Of a stretch of 38,682 nucleotides of DNA, positions 17,901 through 38,682 are shown piece after piece. The DNA is from Psammoneis japonica (taxonomy: Eukaryota): positions 97,332 through 136,013 of the forward strand of contig QPGO01000180.1 of NCBI GenBank assembly GCA_008632985.1. The letters are read 5' to 3'. The first letter of the stretch is position 1; each line of letters begins with the position of its first letter. The translations under genes and the position numbers were made by a program. The notes below the pieces were generated by a model. It was not told the origin of the DNA. It did not search any database and saw only the letters and a program-made list of their open reading frames with translations.

Positions 17901-18131
17901 CAACCAACAGGCAAGCAGAGCAATGACAAACTTGAACGCAAACAACGACGGAATATTTTTGCGCCCTGACTGTTTCATCTCATAGGATAACTTATGCTGA
18001 AACACTGTGCAGTATTCTGTAGACATAGACGTACTTCTTACACCGTTGCCGTCGCCTTCCATCATGGTTCCGCTCGTTTTATTTCCTACCGGTACTGTAT
18101 GTTGCTGTATGTCTGTATGTCGTCTCGTCAT
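15000..18131 (-). CDS. core-2/I-branching (GT14) glycosyltransferase, xylosyltransferase-like, multi-exon; start codon uncertain
   Basis: YAVLTH, FVVHVDGK, RVNWGGFSMVNATL, SSYPIASN, SSQWFI, ADETFFGTVL and FARKF are GT14 motifs. N-terminal TM plus INDS..LEVFWVN...NSYEGHKF domain; Cys-containing ricin-B-like C-terminal repeats. Apparent 1-nt frameshift near 16478. Confidence 0.85.
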
Positions 18132-18601
18132 TGCGCGTCCGCCGTCGTCCGCCCGCAAAAAAATCGCAAGGGATAAAACGCGCACGTCTGCATGTGCGTC
18201 GCAAAGCATGGCGCATCGCGACATCCTCCCGGCCATGTGAACAGCCAAAGCAGAGCTGCAGGCAGAACATTGCGATGAGCTGCCATGTGGTAGAGCTGAA
18301 CATTCCTTGCTTATGTTGCATGGCACATGACTGGACTGGAATGCAAGTGGAAGCCACACGCCTCAGAAGAGCTCCACGTCTTGTCTCCTCGCTTTCAAGC
18401 CACCCAACAACAGCTTCGAGCTCTGGCTCACAGCTGCAAGGGCGGGGACAACCAAACAGACCAAACACACAATGACAGTCAAAAATTGTTGCACATGAGC
18501 CAACACAGTTGCACAAAAGCCATTCCAGGGTGAGACACCACACACGACAATTGATCAGCATCACAAAATTGCCGACGACTCAACTGCAATCCTGTTTGCA
18601 C

Positions 18602-21600
18602 AGTTGGACAAATGCTGTGTGATGATGCTGTGCACAACACATGCCCAAATGTGTGTGCAGAGAACGGACTCAACAATTGGCCGAGTGGCAATTTCTTGCC
18701 TCTTGGGTTGTTGAGAACCGCCCGCACTCGTCAGGTGCCGGCAGCAGTGTGCAGCACTCTGAGTGGTTGTGAGTCTTTGCGCTTCCTGAGGTTGCTGGTT
18801 CGAAATGGCCTCAAATCCAAGCCTCCTTTTCTTTCTCGGCCTGCCCCTTTCCAACCCCATCCAGGGTGGGCGGTTGGGCTTCGAACCCACTCCTCCCTTG
18901 GCCGGGTGCGCCACATGGCACCAACCCATCCTGCCCATCAGAGGGAGTGCATGGTCAAAATTTCGTAAGTCCGCCGTGCGGATGCACCACATGGCGACAA
19001 CCCATCCTGCAACAAGAGGGAGAGTTGGACAAATGCTGTGTGATGATGCTGTGCACAACACATGCCCAAATGTGTGTGCGGAGAAGGGGCTCAACAATCA
19101 GCCGAGTGGCAATTTCTTTGCCTCTTGGGTTGTTGAGAACCTCCAGTGCTCGTCAGGCAGTGTGCAGCATTCTGAGTGGTTGTGAGTCTTTACGCTTCCT
19201 GAGGTCGCTGGTTCAAATCGGCCTCAAATCCAAGCCTCCTTTTCTTTCTCGGCCTGCCCCTTTTCAACCCCATCCGGGGTGGGCGGTTGGGCTTCGAACC
19301 CACTCCTCCCTTGGCCGGATGCGCCACATGGCGCTAACCCATCCTGCTCAACAGAGGGAGTGCATGGTCAAAATTTCGTAAGTCCGCCGTGCGGATGCAC
19401 CACATGGTGACAACCCATCCTGCGACGAGAGGGAGAGTTGAACAAATGCTGTGTGATGATGCTGTGCACAACACACGCCTAAATGTGTGTGCGGAGAAGG
19501 GACTCAACAATTGGCCGAGTGGCAATTTCTTGCCTCTTGGGTTGTTGAGAACCACCCACACTCGTTAGGCACCGGCAGCAGTGTACAGCATTCTGAGTGG
19601 TCATGAGTCTTTGTGCTTCCTGAGGTCGCTCGTTCGAGTCGGCCTCAAATCCAAGCCTCCTTTTCTTTCTCGGCCTGCCCCTTTCCAACCCCATCCGGGG
19701 TGGGCGGTTGGGCTTCGAACCCACTCCTCCCTTGGCTTGGCATGGCCGGATGCGCCACATGGCACTAACCCATGGCAATCGTCCAGCTGCGCAGGTGGCT
19801 CTTCATGAACTGTGCAGGAAATGCACTGGAACTTGCGCAGAATCCCATGACAACACAGTTCCATTTCTGTGACGACAAGCAGAAAGGAACGGTCCAATCT
19901 GGTGCAAGTTGCACAACGACACGAAAGAGGGAATCCTCTTCATTTCCTTCATTCCACTCAAATGATCCCAATTTGGCACATTGCACCGTAAGAAATGGCC
20001 ACGCACATTGCACTTTGATGTGTCTCGGCATGGCAAACATCATGGGGCAGACGTGTTTTCCATGTGTGATCTCTTTCTGTTGCTGTTGTAAAAAATTTGA
20101 CACACTGACTTGGTTCCCTGGGGGGCTTTGGTTGCGACACACGGTGCAAACGGTTGCATGCAAAGACTCGTGCCTCAATTGCTGCACGCTGCGGGCAACA
20201 TCTGAATGGTCGACAACGTCGCCGAGGTAAGTTCTTTGTGCGTGTTTTTAATTTTGTTTCGTTTTCCCATTTGCCAAAGATCATTGTTGTTTTTTGTTTC
20301 AGCTCACAAGGTGGATTGATCATCTCATGTGGTCGATTGTTGCATCTGTGATGTTGGCATGTTTTTCAAGTCGTTGGTGCCGCCAAAGCACACCCGTTTG
20401 GGATCTTTATGCTTCACCCCACTCTACATCCTTTGGTGCACCCATTGTGTACATTGATGTGGATTTGTGACTTGCTTGACATCCTTCTTGGGGGCTTGGT
20501 CGGCACACAATCACGGCATGTCGTGTTTCGGCCATCACAATTTTTGGAAAGTGCACGCCGTAGGAACAAAATGACGCGATGGAGCCTGGAGGACACTTGC
20601 GATGATGGCAATTGTCAGACAGTCTTGTCACAGTCCAAAAAAGGTAATCCCACGAGTGTGTTGTAATTGTTTGAGTGTTTGACTCGTTTTGAAGAAACTT
20701 GCATGCCTCACAAGCATTTTTTGTGCGTCTCGTTCATGCGTGCAGGTGTCTGGTCTAAAGTGATCCTTTCCACCTGCCCTTCAACCGCATCATCATCAAC
20801 ATGCAAGACATGATGTCATCCGCATCATTTTGGGAGATCTTGATGGTGCAACTACGACTCCAGGCTTCACAATGTGTAAAATGGGGAGGTTGAGGCTTTT
20901 GTTGGCGGGCTCATCGCCTCCTCTTGAATGCGCGGATGCCACGAACCACTGATGGCACTTGGGGGCATAAAAATTGGCAAGGCGACTCAGCTCCACCTCT
21001 AAAAGGTGCCCCAGTGAGCACACTGTGACATGTTGCCCCAATGAATTGTCACTGTGCATGTTGTTCCACTCATGTTTTCATTTTGCCTGTCATTTTTTCA
21101 GCATGGACATCTGGGACTGCGAGCGCTTAAAGTGGCCTTTCCATGCCAATGCTCTGCACGACTCAAGTCCTTTGACAACAGTTGTTCCTTCAGGGAATCA
21201 GATTGTGGATCTTTTTGCATCTAGTCGGGTCTGCCAGAGAGGAAATGAGGTGGAGCCGGCTTTCAAAAGTGATGGAGTTCTGGCTCATCGGCAGTTGTGC
21301 ATCTCAACGGCAGCGTTGGCAGTGTGCGTGTAAATTTTCTGTGAGCAATGAAGCAGCAGATGATGCATTTAGATGGATCATGGCATGTTGCTGTTCTTTG
21401 GAGTCTTCACTGGCTAGAGAGCTGCGACTGCCCAGCAGCCACATGCATCGGAAGCGCCAATCGTCTGGGCGTCGTGCATGCCCCACTGCGGCACGAATGA
21501 ATCTCTCCCTCTCTCCTCCTCCTCCTTTTCCTCTTCTTTTTTTCACAAACTCGGAGCCACCTACATGACCGGACATGTGCCTGACCCATCCTGCCCACCA

Positions 21601-21837
21601 GAGGGAGTGCATGGTCAAAATTTCGTAAGTCCGCCGTGCGGATGCGCCACATGGCAATGACCCATCCTGCGACGAGAGGGAGAGTTGGACAAATGCTGTG
21701 TGATGATGCTGTGCACAACACATGCCCAAATGTGTGTGCGGAGAAGCGACTCAACAATTAGCTGAGTGGCAATTTCTTTGCCTCTTGGGTTGTTGAGAAC
21801 CTCCCGTGCTCGTCAGGCAGTGTGCAGCATTCTGAGT
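18602..21837 (+). repeat. tandem array of ~415-420-bp units, interrupted by a TIR element
   Basis: Units start agttg(g/a)acaaatgctgtgtgatgatgc at 18602, 19023, 19436 and ~21682. The array breaks at 19773 and resumes in register at 21582. Confidence 0.92.
19774..21581. mobile_element. 1.8-kb TIR element with GG termini and 8-bp TSD (Merlin/IS1595-like ends; no transposase recognised)
   Basis: 28-bp imperfect TIRs 19774-19801 and 21554-21581 (19/28 match, ggca...gtcc...aggtggctc). TSD TAACCCAT (19766-19773) / TGACCCAT (21582-21589). Neighbouring array units show the empty site. Confidence 0.8.
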
Positions 21838-22173
21838 TGCACAACTCGGTTGCGGACCGCAATCGAAATGACTGCAATCTGCTGATTGTTTGCATCACAT
21901 GGACACAAGGATTGCAATCATGTTTGTGATCGATTGCAGTCAAGTCATGAGTGAAATTTAGTCGTGAGTCCAGGACATTTTCTGATCAATGAGGCGAACA
22001 CGGGACTGACAAGAACCGAGCGCGAGAAACGAGAACAACAGATCAAGGGTGAATTTTGGACAACATGCCCAAAAACAAATGAAAAGTCTCAATGAGGTCT
22101 CATAATTTTGGAGCAATGACCGATTGACGCGCCATTTTCATCTGGTCATTTGGTTTCTTTTTTGAAGAATGCA

Positions 22174-24760
22174 ATGAGCGTGGCTGCAGACGATGTGATG
22201 GACGTGTCGGAAGGCAGCGATGGTGAGAAATTGGTGGACACGGGGTCAAATGTAGAGGAGAAGGTGGACGACTTGGAAAAAGGTGTGCAGGGAGACAATG
22301 CACAGGTTGCTCCTTGGGAAAATGATCCTTCATTCAAAACAAGAGCAAACAGCCCTGGCAAATGAGGGACCAAGTCACCCGTGTGGGATCATGTGCTTCG
22401 CTTGGCATCAGATCACCCCAAGTCAAAAGAGGGACACATGCATGCATGCACTCTCCCTGATTGTCCCCAATGATTTGTGAAGCTGGTGAAGCCCAAGGAC
22501 AAACACTGCTGCACTGCTTCTAAAGCCATCAAGCACATGAAGGACATCCACCCCGACGACCGCGCGAATGAAGCGAAAAAAATCGTGATTTTGCAAAGCA
22601 TGAAAAACTCACGCAACAGCAGTTGGATTTTGCTGTGGTGGCCAGTGAAAAAGATGATGCTCAGGTGCATGTAAAAAATCCACTGAAAGGGTTTAAGCCG
22701 TCCGAAGATGAAATGAGATTGTCATCTCAAGCCCAGTGGCGTGCATGTTCTGAGCAAGCAATCTCCTGTCGCACCTTTGCGGACAAGCATTTTGTTCAGA
22801 TGATGAAATGTCAAGCCAGCGGAGATCCAAATGCACCTGCTCTGTTGCAATGCAAACTCAAACAATGTGTGTCGGTGGAATTTACAGTTTTCATTCGGTT
22901 TGCCATGATCATGTTTAAGCTCAAGAAACAGCAGAGTTTTGGTTTGTCCCATGCCCAAGTCATTCATGATGGAGTCACTCTTGCAAATGGCAAGAAATGT
23001 CAATCAGCTGGCATGCAGTTCATTGATCCAAGGTGGATTGAAAACACAGTGATTTGTCTTGGGTTTGAGCATTCACAACACAATGCTGATGACAAGGTTG
23101 CCGAGCCACTTCAAGACATGCTCTTGTCGATCAATGCAACTTGACGATGGAGGAAGCTGTTGCTTTGATGGCATCAGACAGTGCCGCCCTTGGAGTGTCA
23201 CGGCAGTTTGTTGAAATTGAAGACACTGAAGCATGTGATGTGCATGACGGAGACAAGACAGGACAGTCTGCAGTGGGGGCATTGGCACGCTCTAAAAACA
23301 AGGTTAAAGTTGATCCATTCGAGGATGGAGCGGCTGTGATGGACAAAGCAAAATCTGCAGCAAAGTGCTTCCGATTTGACAAGTGCTTTTCCCAGTTGGA
23401 AATGGCATGCAAGGAAGCTGGCATTGCCGCCCTCAGACCCAAACTGGACATCAACGGCACAAGGATTGATGCAGGGCACCAGCCATTGAACTGGCTCCTT
23501 CATGTGCAACGAGGCGTTGCTCACTTCCACAACAGCAACAAGGATGCCTTCATTCTCACTGATGCCTTGTGGCAGCAATGGCAAGAATTTGAGGTGGTGC
23601 TCCAAGTGACACAAGTTCTTGCCAAAATGGCACAGCATGAGATGCTCTGTGCTGCAGTGCGTGTGGCCCGCTAATTCAGAAAATGACATGTGATGCATTG
23701 ACGAGCAGTGAGTTGTCGATGGTCATGCCAGAGAAGGTTGGCAAAGACAAAAATCTGCCATGATGTGAGCAAGAGCTTGCCTCATTCTCTTCTGCAGGAG
23801 CCACGTGCTGAGAAAGGGCGATCACAGAATTTGAGCAGCGATTCTTGGGCAACACCACCAATGAGCGACTCTCAGAGCCGGGCAAATTGCACTCAACAAC
23901 CGACAGCTGCTGGCTCTTCTTCTTGATCTTCACACTGCAAGGTGCACCTCTGTGCTTTCCCAAGATGTGCAAGAACGTGCCGTGAAATGTTTGTAAAAAA
24001 GCATGTCAAGTTCTGTGTGCAACATGGCAAGCACCAGCATCAAGCCAATTGGAAGAAGAGAGCTGAGGAACAGAAGAACAAGAAAGCCAAGAAACATGCA
24101 AATGAGGCTGCTGGGAATGATGATTTGAAATCAAACAGTGCAAAAGCAGCAAAGAGACGCAAGACTGAACAAGAAGGTGCCAAGAGCAAGGGCAGCGGCT
24201 CATCACACAGCATCAACAACACCGTGGACTTGTCTTTCCTTGGCAGCTCAGGGGAGAGGAGTCTGGCTCCTCTGACAGTGAAGAGGACAATGAAGAGCCA
24301 ATTGAGTCCACTTTGGTCATGAAGACAAGGAAAAGGCATCAAAGGAATTCAAAAAAGCACTCAAACGGTGGAGTCGAAAGGAAATTGAGTGGCACAAAGA
24401 GCACCCTTCTTGTGACATTCTGGCAGATTCGCCAGACTTGATCCAGGATGTCATGAAGTTGGACATTGGAAAACTGTGCAAGAAACTTGAGTTGAGTGAC
24501 AAGAATTGGAAGATGCGTGGTTTTCTCCCTGTTGTGGCCGGCTCGTCTCGTGGTCAGATTGGAGCACTGAATGCAGAAAGCTGTGCCGAGTGAATCAGCT
24601 CGATTGCACAGTTGGCGTTGCATGACAGGAACACTTTGCTTGATGAGAAGGAACTCAGAATGTTGGCAATTCTCCATGTGAATGAATCATTCATGGTGCA
24701 CATGTGAACGCATTGCAGGGATTATGTGAAGAAATTGCAACAGTGCGGGATGACAATTGC
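22174..24760 (+). pseudogene. hAT-superfamily transposase, degenerate
   Basis: BED-finger-like KSPVWDHV...CTLPDC...KHMKDIHP; IHDGVT, MASDSAA, CDVHD (CxxH), NGTRI; C-terminal GALNAESCAE*ISS...RNTLLDEKELRMLAILHVN resembling the hAT dimerisation domain. Several in-frame TGA stops, apparently from CGA. TIRs not identified. Confidence 0.82.
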
Positions 24761-26516
24761 AAAGAACAACATCAACCCAGAAGAGTGATCATGGAATCAG
24801 CATCCTTGCAGCTTCAAACATCAAACAACAAGCAAGCAACAGCATGTTTTTTGACAGTTTGCCTTGACAACGCAGGTCAGATGCATTCAAAAAAGCAGAT
24901 GCAATGCAGTTCAATCGCAAAAAAAATCTTGCCTGCAGCACCATCACCTGCGCAGTGGGCACTCTTGCAGGGGCCAATCGCTGTTGCAATTGCAATCAAT
25001 TGTTGCACGTGGCAATCACTTTGCAATTGCAATCTTTCGATTGCTGCAAAGCCTGGTGCAATTGACGGTTGCAATCCTCAATTGTTGGGAGGAAGTCAAC
25101 GATTTTACAATGCTGCAATTGATGCAAAAGTGGCTCCAGCACACCCAGCAATGAGGGCCAGGGTCGTGAGAAAAATGACACTCAACTGTGCAAGGGTGCA
25201 CAACCAAACAGATTAAACACACTGCAACAGTCCAAAATTGTTGCACAAGAGCCAGTTGAGTTCCAAGCAAAGCCATCATGTGCAAATGATGCAAAAGCAG
25301 CATGAGGTCAGCTCCAGTGCCTTGGCTGCCAAAAATGAGGGTGAGGGCAAGATTGATCATGCTCCTCAACTCCAAGAGCACACGCGGCCAAACAAGTTGA
25401 ACATCCAGGCATTTTTGTCAGTTTCCAAGTCTGACCATCATGCACAAATGATGATGCAAAAGCAGCTCCAATGGACCCAACAACAAGATTGCCCTCAACT
25501 GCATGGAGACACATGACCAAATGAACCAGGCACCCAACATCAGTCCAAATTGTCATGTGCAAGCCAATCCAGGTGTTTTTGTCAGGTTCCAAGTCCAGCT
25601 GTCATGCACAGTCAATGAGAAGCAGTTCCTGATGCACCCCAGATTGACCGACAATGCTGGTCACTCAGGTTGAGCTCAATCCAGCAGCATGTCACTCACA
25701 TGGCACCAGCAGTGTGAACAATGGAACATTGGCATCTTGACCCACCAGAACATGAGATGAAACAAACAACTCTGAGCAAGACAAGGGCAGGCAACAGGCA
25801 AAACCATCAAAACATGACACTGCACCACAAGATGCACAGCTGCAAATCAACACACCCAATTTTCTCACAACAGCACCGCAGGTCCATCACACATGTGAGT
25901 CACAGGATGGGGGTTGTTGGTGGCATCAAGATGATCATCTTTGAAACAAGCATTGTAGAGACAAGCACCACTTTCACTTTTGATGATTGTTCAATTTGTG
26001 CGCTCATTGCTTGTCATTGGAAAAGCACCAGAAGGTGCGCAGCATGACAGCAGCAGCAGCTGATTTTGGGTGGATGGGCTGGAAATGTGTGCATCCACTT
26101 TTTCAAAGTCCTGTGACTCAGCCACATTGTTGGTCAGTCCAATGTTTGACTCAAGTGAATTTCAGGGGGTGGGTGAGGCCCTGTAGAGAGCAAACATGAT
26201 GCTGGTGCAACACCCCCAAAACATGTTGGCGTGGGGCCACTGAGTGGACAAAAACTTGCTGATGGCATCATTTTTTAGATGTGCTCCTTGCTGCAGCAAA
26301 CATCTGCCTCATTTTGACAACCCACCCACCCACCCACACACTCACACACACACAGAATGGTTTGAAATGACAACCATCACCCAGCTGCTGCTGCTGCTGC
26401 TGCTGTTTTTTTTGCCTGCAATTGTCAGATGCAAAATTCCAGGATTTCACCACAGGAAAATCACACGCTTTTTTGCGATTGGGCACAACAAAGCCAAAAG
26501 AGGTTGGCTGGGGAGA

Positions 26517-27560
26517 GCAGCAGACAAAATGCAGACAACAAGCAACAGAGTCCTCAGTGCTGAGCCAGCAGTCTCATGGTGGGCATCAATTGTGTGTGTG
26601 GGGGGCATTGCCATGTAGAAACATGAGGGGTGATGGTGGTGCTGTTTTGGCTCACAACAGCATGTTGTGTTTTGCAGGTTGTTTTGCCAGCTGCATCACA
26701 GTGCATGGTTCAAAAAACAGCTGAAATTTCAGCTCAACAGAGGAGAGCTTGCCTCATTTTTGTTGTGCTGCCTTTTGCTGGGTTTTTTGCTCAAAAATCA
26801 AAAAGTTCCCTTGGCACACAGGGGCTGTCATTGACGAGTGGGGAAAAATGAGCTGAGTCTTTTTCAAAAGGAGGGGCTGACACCTTCTTGGCCATCACAA
26901 AACAGCAAAATCAGGTGGCACCAGCAGCGCGGCAAGCTCTGGCTGTTTCATCTTGTGGGGTGACTCATGCTGGAATGCTGTGCAGCACTCAGCAGACACA
27001 GATTTGTGCTTCCAGCAGACAAAATGCAGACAACAGGCAACAGAGTTCTCAGTGCCAAGCTGGCAGTCTTGTGGGCTTCAATTGTGGGGGACAATGCCAT
27101 GCAGCAGAAACGTGAGAGGGGTGGTGGTGGTGTTTTGGCTCGCAACAGCATGTTGTGTTTTGCAGATCATTTTGCCAGCTGCACCATGATGCATGTGAGC
27201 TGGTTCAAAAAACAGGCTGGCATTTCAGCTCAACAGAGGAGAGCTTGCCTCATTTTTGTTGTGCTGCCATTTGTTGCTGGGTTTTTGTGCTAAAAAAATT
27301 CCCTTGGCACACAGGGGCTGTCATTGATGAGCTGCAAGAAATGAGCTGGATCTTTTTCAGAAGGAGGGGCCAACACCTTCTTGACCATCACACAAAACAG
27401 CAAGATTGGGTGGCACCAGCAGCCAACAGGCAAGCACAGCAGCGCGGCAAACTCGAGTGCAGACAGAGCCTTTTTTGTTCTGGCTGTTTCACCTTGTTGT
27501 GGGCGGGTGGCTCATGCTGGAATGCTGTGCAGCACTCAGCAGACACAGACTTGTGCTTCT
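26517..27560 (+). repeat. two diverged tandem copies of a ~500-bp unit
   Basis: cagcagacaaaatgcagacaac at ~26517 and ~27013; shared blocks tttcagctcaacagaggagagcttgcctcatttttgttgtgctgcc and ctcatgctggaatgctgtgcagcactcagcagacacag. Confidence 0.85.
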
Positions 27561-28267
27561 TGCACTGCCGCCACCACCACCTCTTGCCATCATGGTCTTG
27601 CTCATTTTTGTTTGTGGCTCACCCGTCACCACAACAGAAGTCGCTCAAAAATGTCGCGAGAGTCACAACCAACATTTTGCATGAGGAAAAATGCACCAAA
27701 TCATGTGCAAATGTGCAAAATGTCATGCAAAAGGGTGGCTGGAGCCAATGATTTTGTAGGAACTCAACTGAAACGTCGTCTGATCACAGTCATTTTGACT
27801 CACATGGTGAAGAGCAACGCCTTTGATCAGATTTCCCGAGAAGTTGACATTCAAACACGGATGGGCAGAGAGACGTCGTTTTTGCTGCACCACATCTATC
27901 ATACCGTAGAATCTGCCGCTACTCAAAAATTAAAATCAAGTCCGACATGGAAGGTGACCACCCGTGCCGTACCAAGGATATAACTACCGTATGTCCTTGG
28001 ACGACACCCACCGGACGGCACGCTACGCACGTCCCTTGTTGAAGGTTTGCCTGGTTGAAGGTGACGCGAGGCAGCTGACATCGATCTTCTCTCGCTTTTT
28101 ATTATTTTTTTCAAGTTTTTTTGCATTTTGTTTTCCCGTGCATAGTATTATCGCACCGGATGTGCCTTGGAGTTTGTTTCTATCAATAATTTAGGTATTC
28201 CATCCTTCGTCCAACCAACAATTCGTTCCCAAGTCTTCACATAGGGCTACGAGTCGCAGCATCTATC

Positions 28268-29755
28268 ATGAACGCCTCGAAATCCACCTCGAAGTCCTCC
28301 TCGGAAACCGCATCGAAATCCGCATCAAGATCCGCATCGAGATCCGCCTCTAAGGCGTTGAAGAGCACGGTTACGAAACTCTTAGTAGGCAGCGATGATG
28401 AGTTGTCGTGGGAGGAACTGTGCCGCATCGAGCGCCGTCGACGTGCAATTCTGGAACGAACAGAGCTTCCGTTCTTTCGCATTCTCTGCTTCTGGGACGG
28501 CACCGTTCTAAATGCATTATTTCACGATCCACTCATGTGGATTTGCATGATACTCTACGTCGGCGTCCGGCTTGGAGCAAGGCTCGGTGGGCTACCTGAG
28601 TTCTTCTCTGAACTAGGCGGTGCAGACATTGCAAGCATTGGAGGTTTTCTCATCTTCTTTTTGGGTACGCTGTATATTTTTGCCTTGTATTGTGGTTCAA
28701 TCGCCTTCCATTTGGGCTAGAAGCTAAACGCTGATTGTGTTGTTTTTCTGTTTACAGTATTCTTTGTTGTTTCCTGCAACAAGAGGTTTGATTCACTCTA
28801 TGGTCACTCAATGTCCTGTGAAGGACGTATCTTAGATGGAGCGGGCATCGCGAAGACAATCATGCCGAGAGATAATGCCTTTCGTTTCATCCGCTACATG
28901 AATGCCTTGGTAATATGTACTTTGGGTTTACTGATGCATTGATTCGGCTGGTCAAGGCTCTTCCTCGAGGTGGCTAATACTGTATTCTTTTTTTCTTATC
29001 AGCATGTTGCAGGGTATGTAGGCCTGTCTTCCACCTACACATTCAACAATTTCTTTGTAGAATTCAACAAGGCTAACCGAGTACTTACGGAAGCGGAGAT
29101 GGATCGTTTGCGAAAGATAGACGTAAATATGGGTGGTTCGGCCTATCGAGAACTTGTCACATGGTGCTTGGCCGAAGTAATTACGGCCTTTGAAGCAAAA
29201 TTGATTGATAATCGTCAGAGAGGCTTGCTATTTGGTGTCGTCCTCAAGCTTCGCGAGTCACTGAAAGTGATGTATGACATGGACGACCAACCGGTCAGCT
29301 TCTTCTACCTTCACTTTATCTGCCTACTCACGGCGATCTACCTCCCTTTGTTTGCCATCTCTGCTGCTCTCAATGCTGGTAGTGGCGATGAAGCACATTG
29401 GTTGAACGACATTCTTTCTGGTCTCATTGTGTTCTTGAACTGCATCTTCATCATTGGTCTTCGAATACTTGGACAGAAAATGAGTGATCCGTACGGCAGC
29501 GATGTGGAAGACTTGAGTGTTTTGCACTATGTAACATTCACATGGAGGATGAGCAGGCGCATGCTCGAAGCGGAGCTTCCGAAACCCATCGATCCCAAGG
29601 AAGAAGCAGCGCTTGTCGCCGAGAGTCAAGATTTGGTAGAAGGCGAGGCTTGGGAGGATCCATATTACGAAACAGACGAAAGCAATCCAGAAGACTTTGA
29701 CGATGAAACTGACGCTGAATCTCGTTCTTTGTATGACCGTTTTCTGGGTCGTTAG
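28268..29755 (+). CDS. bestrophin-family anion channel; exons 28268-28664, 28758-28909, 29003-29755 (433 aa)
   Basis: FWDGTVL, FLIFFLVFFV..CNKRF, QPVSFFYLHFI and MSDPYGSDVEDL motifs. Two GT-AG introns give a continuous 1302-nt frame. Confidence 0.88.
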
Positions 29756-30206
29756 GCTTTAATGCGGATGTAGTGAATCTAGGCCTAGTATGGAACTTGG
29801 AATGATGCATAATGCATAGCTGTTTGAAAGTTTTGTTCTCCGCTCTGCTAAAACGATAAAAAAGCTATGGTACTGTAGGCAAAGACAAATGCCGACAAAG
29901 GTTCTGACAGGGCTTTCTGCTATGATGTGAGTTTGAATCATTGAATTCTTTTGGGTCTTGGCCATAGCCGGGTAAAGCAAGCAAAAGCATAACCGGCGGA
30001 TTCCGGTAACCGCGGGCCGGATTTTCGATTCTGTTTTTGCGTCTATCCGTCATCATTTTTTGGCTCTTCTCGCTTCTATGTTTCAAGCGAACTTCCGTAC
30101 CGGTGGTATCTCCAGCTAGAGAGATAGGCTGTCTACTCAGAACTGCAGCAGAAAGTTTTTGTGCACTGTTCCATGGCAATGAACTTTTCTGCTACGGCCG
30201 GAGCTG

Positions 30207-30349
30207 ACTGTTGTAATTTATCCTTCTGGTGACTATTTCAGAGCCACCTCAGTCCTCTAAGGTCTGATCCTGAGGCTAAAATAGACAAGCTTGTTATCAC
30301 AATACTTTCTAAGAGTTAAAAGAGAATAATGACTGCTTCCATCATCGGC
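30207..30349 (-). mobile_element. solo LTR-like copy of the copia family at 34619
   Basis: Reverse complement aligns with 34620-34759, with a long identical core, and ends ...ttacaACA. No clean TSD found. Confidence 0.75.
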
Positions 30350-31830
30350 TGTTTTGTTCACTGCAGATGAGATTCTCTTCATTTATGCTCCGAATATTTT
30401 ATTCTGAGCAACGCTTTATATTTAAATTATCCCGACACAATGTGGGACATTCAGAGCAAATAAGAGTTAATTAAGGCGATAACGCCCACGCAGAGCACAA
30501 TCAGAGTCACCCCTGTGGTAGGGGAGAATATGGTGATGTCATGGTTACGTGGCAGTTTATATCTTATTCATTGTATTTTTATATAAATGTCCTCACATAT
30601 ATTTATGCATTTGTACACAAATGCTAATAGTAGCAGGAAAAATCCTGAACCATGTTCTCCCCTAAAACTCTAACCACCAAAAACCGAGGGGTCGGAAGCG
30701 CACTTTTGGGAGCTCTTTTTCTCCGCACAAAAAACACGCGTTTCGTCGACTCGACCATGACGACCTCCCGTTCTTCGTCCCCCACACCACCTGACGTGTC
30801 CCCGCCTGCCACATCTGATGCGGCAGTCCCTCCTGCATTGGCCGGTGCCGTCACACCCGCTGTCGTTGCCCAAACACAGCCGATTTGCCATCCGGAGGAT
30901 TTGGGCTTCTGTTCGCCGGATCCTGTGCCTGAAACACAAACACAGCGCCGTGATTGGTCCACTCCTGTCATTGCGTCCCCGGAAAAACTGGATTCTCATT
31001 CGCATCGCCGTGTTGTGGAAGGTGCTGATGAGCCTTCTCTCAAACGGTCTGGGGTGCAGCTCCGAAACCAAACCGACGTCAAGGTTCAGTGGGCGTGGCA
31101 GAGGAGCATCTATGACAGGAGGTGTGGTGACAACCTTTCTCAGGATGATTGTTCCTGGGCAGAACCTTGTCTGTCTGGAGGTGATTGAGACTCACCCAGA
31201 GCCCAGCGGAACCAATCGGAGCCAACAACAAGTGTCAAGATGAACCGCAGCAACATGTGAAGGAGGACGCAGCCAATGGAATGCGGGCAGAGAAGGTGCC
31301 GGCATGCAAAGTGGCAGCATGGCTGTCGACAAGGCACTGGTTTTGAAGGTCTGACAGTGATGAACACAGTGAGCATTTGCCAAAAGCATGTTGCTGCCTG
31401 CCTCCATTTCAGCAACATGCAAAAACAGCACGTTGTGCATCACATGCAGAATTCAAACGGCGAGAGTGGCCTCTTGTGGAACTGCACACAACGACCCAGT
31501 CCTGGAAAATGGAGTGGTGTCCAAGTCACATGCACCACTTGAAACCTTGCCAAGTCGCCTGCAAACAAATGCCAATTCGCTGACCTCTCCAACTTGAAAC
31601 TAAAAAACTGTGAAGGCATGCCTGCCATCCAGTTGTCATCAGGTTTCTAAGTTGCAGAGAGCTGCATGATGTGTCTGTACATTCTAAAGATTAGACTGCA
31701 CTCGAGAGCCAACCAAGAGGCACCATTCATGTCCATTGATGTGTCGTCCATCAGCAGGCCGTGGCTGCGTGGGTTTCCTGGCCCGCCGTCATCCGCCATC
31801 CATTGTGTTCCTTCCAAAGCAAAAACAACA

Positions 31831-32708
31831 ACAGCATCAACAGCGACTGCAGCAGCAAGGGCAGGATTGACAGTGTCGGGCATGCTGGGGGGCCGAAACG
31901 CAGGTGCGGCGTTGGAATTCGTGACAGTGTCTGTGGGAGGCGGTGGGGCGAGAATGAAAGAAGTGTGAGTCATTGGCATTTTATTGTGGACGTCATTGGC
32001 AAAATGCAATGACGACGCGTTCCAGGTCTAGGTGGGACCTCGCACTACTGAACTGTGACATCGATGGTTTTTTGAATCACGTCGTATGTCGCGCACGTAG
32101 ATTTCTACGTGATTTTTTCGACATTTTGTGTCATTTTACGGTACACTTATTGAGCGATCCGTCCAACAACTTTTGACATTTTTTGTTACAGCGCGATTCT
32201 ACAATGTCTTAAGAATCGCGTAGGGCAGGCGCATTTGCAAAAACGTCAAGTGGTAACAGGCATAATTGCACCACAAACTTGGCCATTTATTTGATGTTGA
32301 AGTTAAACATATATCCATTAATTAAATTCTCGTACTACGGAGCTCGCACGTAGAATTCTACGGGCCCAATGTCACACGGAGTCCCACCTAGGGCTGGAAC
32401 GCGTCTGACAGCATCAACAGTGCCTGCGGCAGCAAGGGCAGGAGTAACAGCATCGGGCATGCCAGGGGGCCGAAACGCAGGTGCGGCGTTGGAATTCGTG
32501 ACAGCATCTGTGGGAGGCGGTGGGGCGAGAATGAAAGAAGTGTGAGTCATTGGCACTTCATTGTGGACGTCGTTGGCAAAATGCAATGACAGTGTCAACA
32601 GCACCTGCGGCAGCAAGGGTGGGAGTGACAGCATCGGGCATGCCAGGGGCCCGAAACGCAGGTGCGGCATTGGAATTCGTGATGGCATCTGTGGGAGGTG
32701 GTGGAGCG
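31831..32708 (+). repeat. ~181-bp tandem repeat (about 2.6 units) split by a MITE
   Basis: Units at ~31831-32013, ~32408-32590 and ~32590-32708 share gccgaaacgcaggtgcggc(g/a)ttggaattcgtga. Confidence 0.88.
32014..32405. mobile_element. 392-bp MITE with 25-bp TIRs and 4-bp TSD (TGAC)
   Basis: GACGCGTTCCAGGTCTAGGTGGGAC at 32014-32038 and GTCCCACCTAGGGCTGGAACGCGTC at 32381-32405 (23/25 match). TGAC at 32010-32013 and 32406-32409. Confidence 0.9.
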
Positions 32709-34618
32709 TGCAAACAACAGTGTGAGTTTGCAGCATCTTGTTTTGTGCGCATCACACCCACGAGAACTGGAACAATGACATCACCTGTTGCATCAGTGTC
32801 ATTGGCAACGGTGTCAGCAGGATCGGCGTCCTGGGAAGGCGATGGGGAAGAACCACGAGGCATCATCATGGTCGAGTCGACGAAACGCGTGTTTTTTGTG
32901 CGGAGAAAAAGAGCTCCCGAAAGTGCGCTTCCGACCCCTTGGTTTTTGGTGGTTGGAGTTTTAGGGGAGCTGTGGAACAGGAATTTTTGCTTGTGGAACA
33001 TGCACATTCGTGTGCACGTCAACATTAAAACTCAACGCACGGTGAAGCCGTGCGTGCACAACCATGCACACACACACAGCTCCCCTGCCACAGGGGTGAA
33101 TCAGAGCAAATTTGGTTGTTCGGAGCCACAGAATTTTGTTCAGAGCATTGCACGCAGAGCATCAATTTGCAAATTAGAGCATTGTGCTGACATTCAGAGC
33201 GCTGCTGTGATTGTGTCCATTCAATCAGAGCACAACTCTGAATGATGTTTGGATGCCCGTGGAATCTCCATTTAATTGGAGCAAAGCTCTGAATGAACAA
33301 CGGACATTTGGCTAGAGCAAAGCTCTGAACAAACAACGGACGACGACAGCCTCTCCATTTAAACAGATCACAACCATGAACAAATTTGCTGATGCTCTGA
33401 ACAACTGTCATTTACGAAGCTGTGCTTCGATTGACTCTGTCAACAAACACATCCACCAAACCCTGACTGTGCCGGTGAAATCAATCCCAAGCAATTGTGT
33501 GTCACATTGCGTCGTGCGCATGTGTTGCATTGCCTTGTCATTTGTTGTTGTTGTTTCGGGTTGTCCTTTGGCGCCGTTTGTCAGATGCAGCTGACATGGT
33601 CTTTTGACAACACTGCACACACAATGCAAACCTGCAATTGCAAGAACCATTCAATGCGTTCATGCAAACCCAAACTGCCTTTCTTTGTCCAACCTTGCAA
33701 CTGCTTGATCCAAAAACAACATCACACTTTTCGCCACAGCACTTTGCAGGGAACAGTGGGTTGGTTTTGAAGCACACTTGAGCAAAATATTTTCTGTCAT
33801 CTTGATGGACCAAGGCATGGAACAAGTGAGCCTCCTCGCACTTGCACTGCAAACACAAACAAACAAACACAATTGGTTTGCGTGCGTGAACAAGACAACA
33901 CAACAACAGGCATGCCAAATCAACAATGACGTTTGCTCCATGCCTGCAAATTGCAAGCAGTTGTTTGATCCACTTGAGCCACAACGAGTGTTGTGGTTTT
34001 GTGTGTGCGCTTGTTGTTTGCTGTCTTTGTCTTTGTTGCAAACAAACAACAAAGTGAGAGGTGATGTTTCCAAGACACTGCGCACAATCCGCACGACTTC
34101 ACCATGCATTCTCACCGCTTTGTTTTGCAATGGATTTAACAATGGTTTAGAGTGGTTGGCTGGTTGAGTCTGCAAAAGAAATGCCATCATGACACACATT
34201 GAATGCCGTTAGATCAACTTCTCAATGGCAATCCGGAGCACCAACAATGCTCTCACCTTTTCATTTGCGCCATTTGCCATTGTCTCTTTGACCTTTCTCA
34301 TTGCAAACAACAATGGCTGTGTGAGACGTGTCCGATGAATTGCACAATTGGCTGCAAAACAATGTGATCTTACCATCTTCTGTGGTGCTCTCTCTGGCAT
34401 TTCAGCAACTGGGGATGGTTGAGTGTGGCATCCAGCAATGACGCCCCAAAGTGGTCAGAGCAATTGTTTCATTTGCAACTGGAGCACCGACAATGCTCTC
34501 ACCTTTTCATTGTTGCCACTGTTGGAAATGGTGAATTAAAAGTTCAAACACTGAAATTAGACAGTGCGAAGAAGACGCATGCGTCAGCGCTCATGTGCTC
34601 TACGTGAGGCACTGAAAC

Positions 34619-37600
34619 TGCCGATGAAAGCAGTCATCACTCTCTTTTGACTCTCAGAAAGCACTGTGATAACAAGCTTGTCTATTTTAGCCTCAGGATC
34701 AGACCTTAGAGGACTGAGGTGGCTCTGAAATGGTCGCCAGAAGGATAAATTACAACAGTTAAAAGAGAACAATCCAGCTGAGAGCTGTGAAAAGAAAGTG
34801 AGAAAGAAAAGAGTCATTCTCACGGTGTGTGAGACATTTTGCTGCTTTGCCTTTTTGTCATGAGTGGAAGAGGCAAAGGTGGAAATGGCAACAGAAGCCA
34901 AGGAAGAGGACCCTCAGGAAGGGGCAACAAGAGTGGCAAGCAAAGCAACAAGGGCATCAATGATCATGTCCATCATGTTGGAAGTGCCAAGCAAGCATCT
35001 GATTTTCAGATTGCTGCTGAGTTCATCATCAACTACATTGAGAAGACTCATGAGTTTGGAAATGACATTGCAACTGCACTCAACACTTTCACTCCATGTG
35101 ACATGAGTTCTAAGAAGCCGACTTTGCAGGTCAGCTTGACTGGAGATGACAAGGTGGACGTGCCATTGAACAAACAGCATGAAATTGAGTTCAAGACAGA
35201 ATTTGATGCTCACATTAAGAGGACCCAAACTTGTGAGAACAACCTCATCAAGGCTTGTGCTTTGCTCTGGGAGAGATGCTCCAAGGCCATGAAGAACAAG
35301 ATTCAAGCAAGAACCGACTTCCAAGCCAAAATTGAAAACGATCCTGTCGAATTGCTCAAGGCCATTAAGGAGCATGCATTGAACTGCCAAGAGCACAGGT
35401 GTGACATGGCTGTCATCTCAGATTCAATGAGAGCAGTGCTGGAAACCAAGCAGAAGGAGAAGGAGAGTCTCCAAGATTGCACCAAGAGATTCAGGGTTGC
35501 AAGGGACATCATGAAGTCTCACATTGGAGGACCAATTGTCCTCACCAAGGCAGTGCAAGGCATGTCAGAATGTGACGAGCACAATGCGGATGCTGTCAAG
35601 AAGTGTCAAGAAAAGGCATTCAGCCAATTGATGGGTTACATGTGCTTGGAGAATGCAGACCAGCGCAAGTGCGGATCAATTCTAACAGGATTGAACACTC
35701 AGCAGTCCCTCAAGAACGACCAATGTCCCAAGTCCATTGCGGAAGCCAACACGGTGTTGAGCAACCACACTTTTGACTGCGTTGGTCAGCCTGACAACCA
35801 CCGTAACAGGAACAATCGAAACAACAACTCTGGCTCCAAGAAACAAGAAGAAAACCAAGAAATCACGCTGTCCTTCGCTCAGTTAGAAGGGAGGTGTCAC
35901 TGCTGTGGCAAGGCTGGACACAATTCCAAAAATTGCTGGGAAAGGAAAGGAAAACCTCAAGCAGAATGGGCCATCAACAAGGCCAAAGCTAAGGAAGAAG
36001 CAAGCAACGCTCAAGCAAGTGACGATGCCAGCACAGCCAACTCTTCTGCCAAAGAATCCACTGGAACAAAATCCACCGTTTCAGGATGGGCTGGCACGCA
36101 CATCGATGCATCTCTCTGCCAGGATCAATCTGGCAACATGAGAGACTGGATTTTATTGGACAACCAGTCCACAACCACAATCTTCTGCAATGAGAAGCTC
36201 GTCACAGACATCCGTCCATCGGATGAAGCCATGCGTTTGCACACCAATGGCGGAGTCCTAGTCATGACACACAAGGCCACGGTGCCAGGGTTTGGTGAGA
36301 CTTGGTTTGACCCAGATGCAATCACCAACATTTTTGCTTGCTCTGACATGAAGAAGAAGCACAGAATCACAAGTGATTCTAAGCAAGACAACGCATTCAC
36401 CGTTCATCTCCCCAACAAGAAGGTTGGGTTCGAGGAGGACGGAAAAGGGCTGCATGTTTACAAGCCCAAGATTGACGACACTGGAGCTCAGCTCCAATTT
36501 GTGCAGAGTGTGGAAGAGAACAAGAAGTTCTACACTCCACGACAGTTTGAGAAAGCCAAGAGGGCCAGGGAACCATTGCACGCGTTGGGAAACCCAACCG
36601 TGAACGATCTGAAGGCCATCATTTGCGTGAACAGCATCAAGAACAATCCCGTCACAACGGAGGACGTAGATTTGGCCGAGAAGATTTTTGGACCAGACAT
36701 TGGAAGTCTAAAAGGCAAGGCAACAAGGCAGAAGCCAGACCCAGTTGTAGAAAACTACGCAGAGATCCCGAAGGAGCTCATTGCAGCACAGCACAAGGTC
36801 GCTCTTTGCCTGGACAGCCTCAAGGTGAATGGATTGCCATTCCTCACCACAGTGTCACGAAACATTTTTTATTGCACGGCACAACCGCTCAAGGACTTGA
36901 CCCAACCAACTCATCAAGAAGCTCTGGAAGATGTGCTGCGAGTCTGCAACAAGGCCGATTTGAAGGTCACACGCATTCATTGCGACAACGAATTCAGGCC
37001 CATTGGGAATGCACTAGAAGACAAGTTTGATCTCAAGGTGAACTGTGCAAATGCTCAGGAGCATGTCCCAGAAGCCGAAAGAAACAACCGAGTTATTCAA
37101 GAACGTGCCAGGGCAGTCTATCATCAGCTGCCATTCAAGCATCTGCCAAAACTCATGGTCGAAGTCATGGTCACCGAAGCTGCTAAGAAGCTCAACCATT
37201 TTCCAGCCAAGCACGGCGTTTCCAAACATTGCAGTCCAAGAATGATTCTCCATCAAAAGAATCTAGACTGTGACAAGAGCTGCAAGATCACGTTTGGCAC
37301 TTGTGTGCAAGCTCACAATGACCCGGACCCCAAGAACACCCAAGAGTCATGGACCTTGGATTGCATTTGTTTGCGCCCCACCGACAGCAACCAGATTGGA
37401 CATGAGTTGCTGCACTTGCAAACCGGCAAGAAGATCACTCGTCGCAAGGTCACCCCTGTGCCCATCACTCCCGCCATCATAAAGCAGGTTCATCGTTTGG
37501 CTGAAATGAACAAGATGCCCAACGGTCTCAAGATTCAGAACCGCACTGGAACTGTTTTGTACGACAGTGCTTGGCTTGCAGGAGTGGATTGTGATGAAGA

Positions 37601-38682
37601 TCAATTTGAAGACGAAGATTGTGATCTAGAAGAAGACATTGAAACTGAAGACGATGAGGAAGAAGAGCTAGACTGGGGAGACTGCGACAGAGTTAGTCAA
37701 GAAGAGCTGCAAGACACAACTCGGGAACAAGAATTGGATGAAGAAGCCAGCTGCATCAGCGAACAACAAGACGAGACTCAAGAAGAAACCTCCAATGATG
37801 AGCATCTCGGAGACAATGACGAAGTTGGTTCTCAACCATCAGACGGCAGCGGAATCTCACAAGAAATCGATGACATGATTGACCACATTGATGAACAACA
37901 GAGGCTGGAACAAGAGAAGGAACACTCTCCGGAAGTGCAAGAGATCATCGACGAAATGAAAGACCTGGAATCTGATGACGAATCTGGAGAGGAGCAGAGT
38001 GAAACCGAAGAAAGTGTCCAAGAAGAGCCTGTTGCTACATCCAGGGCAGGAAGGACTCTCAAACCTCCAGTTAGATTGGGAGACTGCCAATGCCATCTGC
38101 AGACTCAAGCCCATTCACAAGAAGAAGCGCGCAGCTTGGAGATGGCCAGAATCATGGCCATGACAATGTGCCAGTGGAACGAAAAGGTTAGCATGATTTC
38201 CACTGATGAAGAAGCACACCAATTTATTCAGACTTGCAGCTTGGCACGAGGACTCCAGAAGTTTGGAGAAGAAGGCCACAAGTCGGCAGTGTCAGAGCTG
38301 AAGCAAATCCATGACAGAGTGGTTTTCAAACCCATTCACATCAATGACATGACTCCTCTGGAGAGGAAGAGAGCCATGGAGAGCCTCATGTTTCTCACAG
38401 AGAAGAGAGATGGACGAATCAAGTCAAGGTTGTGTGCAAACGGAAGCACGCAACGAGAGCACATGGACCAAGACGAAACCGCCAGTCCGACAGCATCCAC
38501 AGAATCTGTTCTCATTGCAGGAGTGATTGATGCTGAGCAAGGCAGAGACGTTGTGACAGCGGACATCCTGAACGCATTTGTGCAAACGGACATCGAGGTC
38601 AAGGATGAAAAGATCATCATGAAGATCCGTGGAAGGATGGTGGACATGTTGCTGGAATTGGATTCAGACACTTGCCAGGACT
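34619..38682 (+). mobile_element. Ty1/copia LTR retrotransposon (diatom CoDi-like), 3' end outside window; putative 5' LTR 34619-34757
   Basis: TG...CA-bounded ~139-bp segment duplicated at 30207-30349, followed by a gag-PR-IN-RT polyprotein in copia domain order. Confidence 0.92.
34860..38682 (+). CDS. copia gag-pol polyprotein; open frame of 1274 codons running off the window, hypermutated and probably non-functional
   Basis: Hand translation from ATG 34860 found no stop (absent from the ORF track because it has no stop in the window). Zn knuckle CHCCGKAGHNSKNC, protease WILLDNQST, integrase IHCDNEF and EHVPEAERNNRVIQER, RT start KRDGRIKSRLCANG, ASPT, ADILNAFVQT. Confidence 0.9.
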   Translation, partial: MSGRGKGGNGNRSQGRGPSGRGNKSGKQSNKGINDHVHHVGSAKQASDFQIAAEFIINYIEKTHEFGNDIATALNTFTPCDMSSKKPTLQVSLTGDDKVDVPLNKQHEIEFKTEFDAHIKRTQTCENNLIKACALLWERCSKAMKNKIQARTDFQAKIENDPVELLKAIKEHALNCQEHRCDMAVISDSMRAVLETKQKEKESLQDCTKRFRVARDIMKSHIGGPIVLTKAVQGMSECDEHNADAVKKCQEKAFSQLMGYMCLENADQRKCGSILTGLNTQQSLKNDQCPKSIAEANTVLSNHTFDCVGQPDNHRNRNNRNNNSGSKKQEENQEITLSFAQLEGRCHCCGKAGHNSKNCWERKGKPQAEWAINKAKAKEEASNAQASDDASTANSSAKESTGTKSTVSGWAGTHIDASLCQDQSGNMRDWILLDNQSTTTIFCNEKLVTDIRPSDEAMRLHTNGGVLVMTHKATVPGFGETWFDPDAITNIFACSDMKKKHRITSDSKQDNAFTVHLPNKKVGFEEDGKGLHVYKPKIDDTGAQLQFVQSVEENKKFYTPRQFEKAKRAREPLHALGNPTVNDLKAIICVNSIKNNPVTTEDVDLAEKIFGPDIGSLKGKATRQKPDPVVENYAEIPKELIAAQHKVALCLDSLKVNGLPFLTTVSRNIFYCTAQPLKDLTQPTHQEALEDVLRVCNKADLKVTRIHCDNEFRPIGNALEDKFDLKVNCANAQEHVPEAERNNRVIQERARAVYHQLPFKHLPKLMVEVMVTEAAKKLNHFPAKHGVSKHCSPRMILHQKNLDCDKSCKITFGTCVQAHNDPDPKNTQESWTLDCICLRPTDSNQIGHELLHLQTGKKITRRKVTPVPITPAIIKQVHRLAEMNKMPNGLKIQNRTGTVLYDSAWLAGVDCDEDQFEDEDCDLEEDIETEDDEEEELDWGDCDRVSQEELQDTTREQELDEEASCISEQQDETQEETSNDEHLGDNDEVGSQPSDGSGISQEIDDMIDHIDEQQRLEQEKEHSPEVQEIIDEMKDLESDDESGEEQSETEESVQEEPVATSRAGRTLKPPVRLGDCQCHLQTQAHSQEEARSLEMARIMAMTMCQWNEKVSMISTDEEAHQFIQTCSLARGLQKFGEEGHKSAVSELKQIHDRVVFKPIHINDMTPLERKRAMESLMFLTEKRDGRIKSRLCANGSTQREHMDQDETASPTASTESVLIAGVIDAEQGRDVVTADILNAFVQTDIEVKDEKIIMKIRGRMVDMLLELDSDTCQD

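Follow-up and report, generated by a model that had tools for sequence, protein, structure and literature searches.

At the right end of a 38,682-nucleotide (nt) stretch of the Psammoneis japonica genome lies the gag-pol reading frame of a Ty1/copia-type long terminal repeat (LTR) retrotransposon, a dead copy that still looks intact. The stretch, here called the window, covers positions 97,332 to 136,013 of the forward strand of contig QPGO01000180.1 (GenBank assembly GCA_008632985.1), and all coordinates below count from its first base. We consider it highly probable (roughly 85%) that the copia copy was inactivated in place by hypermutation at the DNA level, which changed A:T to G:C specifically at 5'-TA-3' steps, so that a hit on one strand would leave TG and a hit on the opposite strand CA. 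The original prediction, made by a model from the letters of the sequence, had described a single element hit by a concentrated process. This holds for the copia frame, but the single-element view was too narrow: the cause reaches beyond the element, and whole blocks of the window are marked, including non-coding DNA and repeats that are not retroelements.

The copia frame is open on the plus strand from 34839 to 38681 (1281 codons, zero stops) and continues past the window end. Its first ATG, at 34860, begins an N-terminus (MSGRGKGG) common to the homologues, and the 1274 codons from this ATG (34860-38681, plus strand) are the first of about 1640 expected for a complete gag-pol frame, with TA>TG/CA change at saturation. 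Each of the other five frames contains 23-72 stops over the same stretch. Six homologous polyproteins align as one tblastn segment each, with starts at 34896-34956 for five of them and ends at 38666-38681 for all six; the absence of stops and frameshifts over 1274 codons, claimed earlier, is thus borne out. A word-seeded protein search with residues 420-1281 gave 237 proteins at E≤0.001 among 8000 scored candidates. The best 120 of these 237, which were used for composition and naming, are mostly 1600-1650 amino acids (aa) long, carry RVT_2 and are up to 59% identical to the copia frame; the named relatives among them are all diatoms (three proteins of Fragilaria crotonensis, one of Nitzschia inconspicua and one of Nitzschia sp.). 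An exhaustive search of representative proteins returned 17,876 relatives at E up to 0.001.

Three features of the Ty1/copia group are present: RVT_2, an integrase located 5' of the reverse transcriptase (the order gag-protease-integrase-reverse transcriptase) and a CCHC gag. The start of the copia-type reverse transcriptase (38403-38603, plus strand; from residue 1189) matches positions 29-95 of the 244 in the Pfam RVT_2 profile, the rest lying beyond the window. It scores 27.3 bits (E 3e-6), below the cut-off of 31.6, because the window end cuts the domain. All 14 members of the homologue alignment match RVT_2 (best E 7e-15), three of the 14 have a retroviral SH3-like domain and one has Retrotrans_gag; none of the 14 matched Pfam rve. 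The gag CCHC zinc knuckle, CHCCGKAGHNSKNC, is at 35895-35936 (plus strand), and its second residue is His where homologues have Tyr (CYCCGK). Upstream of the reverse transcriptase, residues 521-922 (36399-37604, plus strand) form the integrase region, with the invariant motifs HCDNEF and QEHVPEAERNNR. An AlphaFold2 model of this region, built with 27 homologues as alignment, has a mean predicted local distance difference test (pLDDT) score of 78.6, and its top Foldseek matches are retroviral integrases (E 3.6e-9, probability 1.00), so the region is predicted to have a retroviral-type integrase fold. A sequence-profile search of the copia family against the PDB gave no hits. In a search for LTRs, the 3' end of the element lay beyond the window, and upstream of the frame only a 147-nt module recurs, inverted, at 30204-30350. 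Scans of the window for tRNAs and against Rfam gave no hits.

The evidence for hypermutation begins with the tyrosines. Only 8 of the 1281 codons of the copia frame encode Tyr (0.62%), in agreement with an earlier hand count of about eight, and there are 43 Cys (3.36%) and 45 His (3.51%). Among the best 120 of the 237 homologues Tyr ranges from 3.30 to 5.61% (median 4.02), with medians of 1.19% for Cys and 2.63% for His, and the sum of the three residues is nearly the same in the homologues (7.8%) and the copia frame (7.5%). The lowest Tyr content among 267 collected homologues is 1.71%, and the probability of drawing eight or fewer Tyr at a frequency of 4.0% is 4e-14. For comparison, a bestrophin frame in the same window (28943-29755) has 12 Tyr in 271 aa; the original prediction had used the same contrast with 11 in 250 aa. 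That prediction had also quoted 13 motifs in which the copia frame reads Cys or His at positions expected to be Tyr in diatom copia proteins, and the consensus of 13 homologues has Tyr in every one of them (KAYALLW, LNYQExRY, LQDYTKRF, KYGS, NDQYPK, CYCCGK, GLYxYKP, YYSPR, LDYxKHC, FGTYVQAH, CIYLRY, QTYSL and QREY).

A column-wise test was carried out on the copia frame and 60 homologues of at least 1590 aa, namely the first 60 by id among the 120, with shorter and later ones left out. A column was called conserved if at least 70% of the 60 homologues agreed, which gave 468 columns, 29 with Tyr and 439 with other residues. At the 29 Tyr columns the copia copy has one Tyr, 18 Cys, 6 His, and one each of Phe, Ser, Leu and Arg, and all 24 Cys and His codons are TGY or CAY, a single TA>TG or TA>CA step from TAY. 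At the other conserved columns it retains the consensus in 382 of 439 cases (87.0%). When homologues were left out one at a time and scored in the same way, they retained a median of 88.9% of the Tyr columns (minimum 58.6%) and 89.3% of the other columns (range 73.6-96.4). Two outcomes that had been named in advance as contrary to the idea, active homologues with Cys or His at the same positions and equally high divergence at other sites, were thus not encountered. Polarised by the homologues, the direction of change in this alignment is from Tyr to Cys or His.

The 85 conserved columns at which the copia copy has a replacement can be divided by the kind of change. TA-context changes account for 31, CpG-context changes for 5, other A:T>G:C changes for 7 and other G:C>A:T changes for 5; the rest are single transversions (24) and multi-step replacements (13). 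The TA-context class consists of the 24 Tyr columns and seven changes of A>G after T, six at the first codon base (e.g., I>V, T>A, M>V and K>E) and one ATA>ATG (I>M). The CpG-context replacements are R>C twice, R>W, R>Q, and P>L, the last in DILNAF, where the homologues have DIPNAF and CCG has become CTG, as had been proposed. With the seven non-Tyr TA-context and the five CpG-context replacements scored as kept, retention at the other columns is 89.7%. Once TA and CpG columns are set aside, therefore, the encoded protein appears to be conserved like that of a working homologue.

Dinucleotide frequencies give the same picture at the DNA level. The observed/expected ratio (o/e) of TpA in the copia frame is 0.14, with 1.59 for TG and 1.50 for CA. 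There are 8.6 TA per kb, compared with 30-54 in 17 intact homologue open reading frames (ORFs) on metagenome contigs, a loss of about 80%, and all three codon phases share the deficit, which is about 5-fold in each. CpG has been lost to a lesser extent, about 40-50% (27.8 per kb compared with 20-62, the median of the listed values being about 44; o/e 0.48 compared with a family median of 0.96), and the earlier remark that many CpGs remain is correct, as there are 107 in the frame. Net changes per kb relative to the intact ORFs are about -38 for TA, -16 for CG, +16 for TG and +27 for CA. A process that outpaces deamination of 5-methylcytosine had been postulated; the larger loss of TpA agrees with this, but the loss of CpG is itself substantial.

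Among related metagenome loci the depletion is exceptional. In 72 loci of at least 2 kb the median TA o/e is 0.65, with 71 of the 72 at 0.52-0.83, a median CpG o/e of 0.96 and TG/CA of 1.21; seven shorter related loci have a TA o/e of 0.61-0.84. The TpA-depleted footprint is found in one of these 79 loci, a 2351-nt contig called L024 (49% protein identity), with a TA o/e of 0.13 and TG/CA of 1.59. At 16 conserved Tyr columns L024 has 4 Tyr, 10 Cys, 1 His and 1 Phe, and it keeps 227 of 263 other columns. Its copia match is in two open frames, 2-1705 and 1774-2349, with one break between them. As far as these sequences tell, TpA depletion is neither a trait of the family nor related to codons.

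The footprint extends over much of the window. In 77 windows of 500 nt the TA o/e is bimodal, with 33 below 0.2 and 37 at 0.4-0.9, and it correlates negatively with TG/CA (Spearman -0.86) and positively with CpG (+0.81). Using slightly coarser bounds for the low blocks than the refined coordinates given here, low-TpA blocks total 19,229 nt with 121 TA (o/e 0.10), CpG 0.52, TG/CA 1.65 and 49.7% GC, and normal blocks total 18,389 nt with 755 TA (o/e 0.61), CpG 0.96, TG/CA 1.14 and 47.9% GC (Fisher test on TA counts, p = 1e-121). In the low blocks the frequencies of AT, AA and the remaining listed dinucleotides hardly change. The borders are sharp to about 20-150 nt; for example, TA occurs every ~10 nt until 30671, and the next is at 31111. 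The low blocks are at 1-2830 (17 TA, o/e 0.11, no family match), 18310-27760 (the largest, with 53 TA in 9451 nt, o/e 0.09, CpG 0.44 and TG/CA 1.73), 30671-32013 (8 TA, o/e 0.11), 32406-34536 (13 TA, o/e 0.09, CpG 0.61, TG/CA 1.80, no recognisable protein family) and, over the copia frame, 34763-38682 (33 TA, o/e 0.13, CpG 0.48, TG/CA 1.54). Their CpG o/e ranges from 0.31 to 0.67. The block at 18310-27760 contains tandem repeats of 413-421 nt and of ~495 nt, and its sub-block 22018-27353, which by read depth looks near single-copy at 90% likeness, is the most extreme part of the window (TA o/e 0.05, CpG 0.31, TG/CA 1.82).

The normal blocks, 2831-18309 and 27761-30670, are gene-bearing and contain every one of the six genes in which a Pfam domain was recognised (ankyrin, HpcH aldolase, HRDC/zf-PARP, P450, Branch and bestrophin). 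Pfam searches of ORFs from the low blocks other than that of the copia frame (5 of 18 ORFs in one scan and 42 in another) gave nothing above the cut-off; the sub-threshold matches were Sporozoite_P67 (17.4 bits) and RNA_pol (15.7 bits, on 23927-24319). In this window, then, hypermutation is restricted to selfish-DNA regions and ordinary genes are spared.

Both strands are affected. In the copia frame Tyr has been replaced by Cys at 18 and by His at 6 conserved columns, and TG and CA counts are nearly equal in four non-coding low blocks (262/283, 1000/1046, 129/133 and 237/241). In a runs test done by hand, Cys and His showed no strand-coordinated clustering along the frame (8 runs, about 10 expected, not significant). 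The base that comes after TA matters: relative to the family baseline, survival of TA trinucleotides in the frame is 0.05 for TAT, 0.11 for TAC, 0.25 for TAA and 0.38 for TAG, and relative to the normal blocks of the window, survival in the low blocks is 0.02 for ATAT, 0.01 for ATAC, 0.08 for GTAC, 0.46 for TTAA and 0.50 for CTAA. These values would fit two independent hits, one per strand, each preferring T-A-Y (Y, pyrimidine). Since Tyr codons are TAY, the sense-strand A stands in the preferred context, and this can explain the excess of Cys over His without a strand bias.

Consequences for the reading frame were examined by enumerating every codon in every context. As the original prediction had stated, TA>TG/CA yields no stop from a sense codon, and existing stops are changed (TAA to TGA or CAA, TAG to TGG or CAG). 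TGA makes up 84% of stop triplets in the low blocks and 50% in the normal blocks. Because TAA and TAG are removed and no stop is ever made, hypermutated elements would keep long frames and be annotated as intact or active. Long spurious ORFs are present on both strands of the low blocks, from which TAA and TAG have been removed, such as one of 479 codons at 752-2191; a 160-codon ORF lies antisense to copia at 34914-35396, and gene callers could report such ORFs.

A repeat with copies in both kinds of block shows the process outside the copia family. The unmutated paralogue (17736-18080, plus strand) is in a TA-normal block, and two mutated tandem copies (26518-27608, plus strand) have nearly every TA changed to CA or TG and many CG changed to TG or CA. 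At the 12 aligned TA of 17736-18080, one mutated copy has eight T>C and five A>G changes. The unit is ~495 nt long, and its single unmutated copy, 8.5 kb from the mutated tandem pair, is within a 329-codon minus-strand frame (17373-18362) that has no Pfam match. The 413-421-nt repeat of the same low block has tandem and dispersed copies at 18602-19877 and 21573-21837, 88-95% identical and with a summed contig depth of up to ~7240, which vary between TTGG, TCAG and TTAG, i.e., TG, CA and TA at one dinucleotide.

Two short segments between the low blocks have normal TA. One, at 32014-32405, resembles a miniature inverted-repeat transposable element (MITE); it is 392 nt long with 25-nt terminal inverted repeats (92% complementary), has a TA o/e of 0.83 and CpG of 1.45, and is unmutated. 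It is nested in the mutated region between 183-nt repeat units, many contigs end at both its borders, and its summed contig depth is 137,366, compared with ~57 over single-copy genes. The other is an island of 226 nt directly upstream of the copia frame (34537-34762; 10 TA, o/e 0.58). It includes the 147-nt module (34616-34762), of which an inverted, 92% identical and unmutated copy lies on the minus strand at 30204-30350, downstream of the bestrophin gene. Both copies are TA-normal, and at five TA-related differences the copy at 30204-30350 has TA and the one beside copia has CA or TG. The module may be an LTR end or a small element. In a transition-tolerant local alignment of 30001-31200 (reverse strand) with 32401-34900 only this module was recovered, with no extension. 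As the MITE-like insert is abundant yet unmutated, abundance alone does not appear to draw mutation to a sequence, and mutation of the blocks is not continuous unless short elements are exempt.

The chemistry that would best suit these results is enzymatic deamination of adenine to inosine, read as G, perhaps by a TadA/ADAT2-like or another DNA deaminase. Its targets may be silenced, cytosine-methylated chromatin domains and not copy number as such, because CpG is co-depleted in the low-TpA blocks. Action would be episodic, since the younger short inserts inside the blocks are unmutated, and far faster than ordinary mutation, since the rest of the copia protein is conserved like its working homologues.

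The alternative with the best claim, though we think it improbable, places the driver on the thymine side: the thymine of TpA would be modified enzymatically, e.g., to 5-hydroxymethyluracil, and mispairing or faulty repair would lead to T>C. TpA reads the same on both strands, so the footprints of the two are identical; A>G on one strand is indistinguishable in sequence data from T>C on the other, and the T-A-Y preference can equally be read as R-T-A (R, purine) for a thymine-directed enzyme. The 5-hydroxymethyluracil of dinoflagellates is concentrated at TpA. What counts for adenine is that the only experimental precedent, the chlorarachniophyte discussed below, proposes adenine deamination in the available text of the preprint, a proposal that is itself unproven.

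A much smaller chance is given to an artefact of sequencing or assembly, in which modified bases (such as methylated A in TpA and 5-methylcytosine in CpG) of silenced repeats are systematically miscalled as G or T by signal-based long reads. As modification-dependent miscalls would, TpA and CpG depletion coincide by block, with the Spearman coefficient of +0.81 given above. In addition, within 22950-26478, in the near single-copy block, 11 of 14 listed differences between the window and a sequencing run are A:T>G:C in the run (three at TpA and five from CA or TG to CG, at full depth); these could be assembly errors, allelic differences or continuing mutation. Three sequencing runs cover the stretch; all come from one sample, from which the assembly may itself have been made. 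Run X1 yields word-based contigs (depth ~57-63) in which this most depleted block differs from the window at 3-4 positions per 700-800 nt (four in an 806-nt contig; three, and two gaps, in a 792-nt contig over 701 window bases). The footprint is also present on the unrelated metagenome contig L024, miscalls would not predict clean copia homology at all other sites, and in B. natans sequenced lines acquired such changes as genuine new mutations, according to the text of the preprint cited below.

The same runs bear on copy number and on variation between copies. Summed contig depth is 1260-1886 over copia and ~57 over the bestrophin gene, which suggests that copia is a multi-copy family, summed depth not being a copy number. 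Among 40 of 422 variant rows, 26 lie on the axis TA<->TG/CA<->CG, and four (20868/9, 21191/2, 21658/9 and 36574/5) are CA<->TG swaps, the pattern expected if separate copies lose an ancestral TA or CG by independent mutations.

Editing of the transcript from A to I by an ADAR-like enzyme favouring a 5' U, and carried into DNA by reverse transcription before integration, is scarcely plausible. To our knowledge, ADARs are confined to animals. The excess of Cys, the product of sense-strand A>G, over His (18:6) is in the direction that editing would give. A>G after T corresponds to the neighbour preference of ADAR as described in the available text of bioRxiv 10.64898/2026.01.13.699255. The six changes of Tyr to His and the net gain of CA (+27 per kb) nonetheless require T>C on the sense strand, the tandem repeats, the mutated paralogue of a TA-normal sequence and the blocks without a retroelement signal are equally affected, and block borders do not track the element. 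That there is no mutator, and that TA is simply avoided by the family or host for reasons of codon usage, mRNA stability or selection against stop codons, can practically be dismissed: TA is mildly low everywhere (0.61 in genic blocks, 0.65 in homologues), but 28 of 29 conserved tyrosines are lost, the loss is equal in all codon phases, non-coding repeats are affected, and neither the neighbouring genes nor 78 of the 79 related loci show the depletion.

Several observations weigh against TpA-specific hypermutation of DNA as set out here. In the pair of old paralogues, A>G outside TpA occurs at 21 of 72 and 24 of 89 sites, and G>A at 13 of 63 and 11 of 76, so that the specificity for TpA would not be absolute or the paralogue alignment is noisy. 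The 226-nt island and the MITE-like insert retain normal TA, and episodic action covers them only by assumption. The ratio of Cys to His, 18:6, gives only p = 0.02, and over the frame as a whole the gain of CA (+27 per kb) exceeds that of TG (+16 per kb). Finally, agreement of the sequencing runs with the window is not fully independent support against an artefact.

A comparable process has been described in mutation-accumulation lines of the chlorarachniophyte Bigelowiella natans (Mettrop et al., bioRxiv 10.64898/2026.01.13.699255, 2026; the statements here follow the available text of this preprint). In two integrated viral regions 230 of 231 mutations were A>G or T>C, those all on TpA, at a rate ~1000-fold above that of the genome and in some lines only; 324 coding sequences (CDS) with low TpA, enriched for reverse transcriptase and DDE domains, were found, and an ADAT2-like adenine deaminase was proposed. 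The likenesses are close: A:T>G:C transitions on TpA, giving TG or CA depending on the strand, loss of TpA with gain of CpA and TpG, confinement to foreign or selfish regions, and action that is not constitutive; the enrichment of reverse transcriptase and DDE domains among the low-TpA CDS of B. natans is a further one. In contrast to the giant-virus and virophage inserts of that species, the carriers here are a copia element with diatoms as its named relatives and repeats that could not be annotated. Depletion in the window is near saturation (o/e 0.05-0.13), compared with 0.45 in the region derived from a nucleocytoplasmic large DNA virus in B. natans, and CpG co-depletion in the same blocks and the T-A-Y preference are features of the window that differ from the published account. 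Moreover, the rate in B. natans was measured in lines, whereas here the footprint is known from sequence alone. The available text of the preprint does not mention trinucleotide, diatom, stramenopile, retrotransposon or Copia, and its supplements may hold sequence contexts bearing on T-A-Y.

The closest concept is repeat-induced point mutation (RIP) of fungi such as Neurospora, which is chemically the opposite. RIP likewise acts on DNA, on both strands and in one dinucleotide context, and leaves skewed blocks beside normal genes. It changes CpA to TpA, so that TpA rises, CpA and TpG fall, the DNA becomes AT-rich and stops are made; here TpA becomes TG or CA, GC rises slightly and no stops arise. 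Both duplicates are mutated by RIP, whereas the copy at 17736-18080 was spared and the copies in the low block were mutated. Fungal RIP itself was rejected as an explanation, since an excess of TpA, a deficit of CpA and TpG, and premature stops were expected and the opposite footprint was found. In animals, APOBEC3 (G>A) and ADAR (A>G) also leave dead hypermutated copies of retroviruses and retroelements, and ADAR shares the preference for a 5' U or T. These enzymes act on one strand of a cDNA or RNA intermediate, and APOBEC makes stops, in contrast to the changes on both strands and in non-retroelement DNA seen here. Deamination of 5-methylcytosine at CpG co-occurs in the window and likewise ends in TG or CA, but it cannot remove TpA, and the loss of CpG in the copia frame is less complete than that of TpA.

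In its organisation the element resembles diatom CoDi and other Ty1/copia elements, with a CCHC gag, an integrase 5' of RVT_2, a polyprotein of ~1600-1650 aa and nearest named relatives in Fragilaria and Nitzschia; unlike these relatives, the copy here retains one of 29 conserved tyrosines. The words hypermutation, RIP, dinucleotide and tyrosine are absent from the main text of Maumus et al. 2009 (PMC2806351), as available. The literature searched gave no account of hypermutation directed at TpA in diatoms, and a 2025 preprint on diatom transposable elements (TEs) also lacks the relevant terms.

Some further features of the window deserve mention. Its genes are long uninterrupted reading frames, poor in introns, and this, with the named relatives of the copia protein, is the basis for speaking of a diatom-type host. 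The P450 protein has no identical or named match (best 87% identity); given also the uninterrupted frames, the published strain of B. natans, a species with intron-rich genes, is an unlikely source. Immediately 5' of the bestrophin-domain frame, a contig of run X2 omits 93 nt with GT..AG ends at 28663-28757. This run, recorded as 'DNA?', has its coverage mainly at 28.0-30.0 kb and 20.7-21.3 kb of the window and looks like spliced complementary DNA; no RNA run was listed for the stretch. The sub-block 22018-27353 is A-rich on the plus strand and contains three plus-strand ORFs in one frame (23093-25213); it could be an old hypermutated insert of unrecognised origin.

The copia copy and its surrounding blocks are a new instance, in a different host and on a different kind of target, of a process so far described in one preprint. 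In the literature searched, and as far as the available text of that 2026 preprint goes, a programmed A:T>G:C mutator acting on selfish DNA is known from it only, in one chlorarachniophyte. The T-A-Y preference, action on both strands, sharp-bordered domains, co-location with CpG decay and the spared MITE-like insert offer handles toward the enzyme and its targeting. A practical consequence is that low Tyr with high Cys and His, or a TpA o/e below ~0.2, can serve as a flag for dead copies, and also for spurious ORFs on other strands of the blocks. As the footprint is found on a retrotransposon of the diatom kind and on an environmental contig, the process may be widespread in ecologically dominant algae. 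We tentatively suggest an adenine-directed counterpart of RIP as a defence that distant algal lineages (the diatom-type host, the host of L024 and B. natans) might share, one that would act episodically on whole silenced chromatin domains and not on copy number, prefer T-A-Y, and kill transposons purely by missense. One deaminase might then drive both CpG and TpA toward TG and CA, and thousands of 'intact' algal TE ORFs could be dead.

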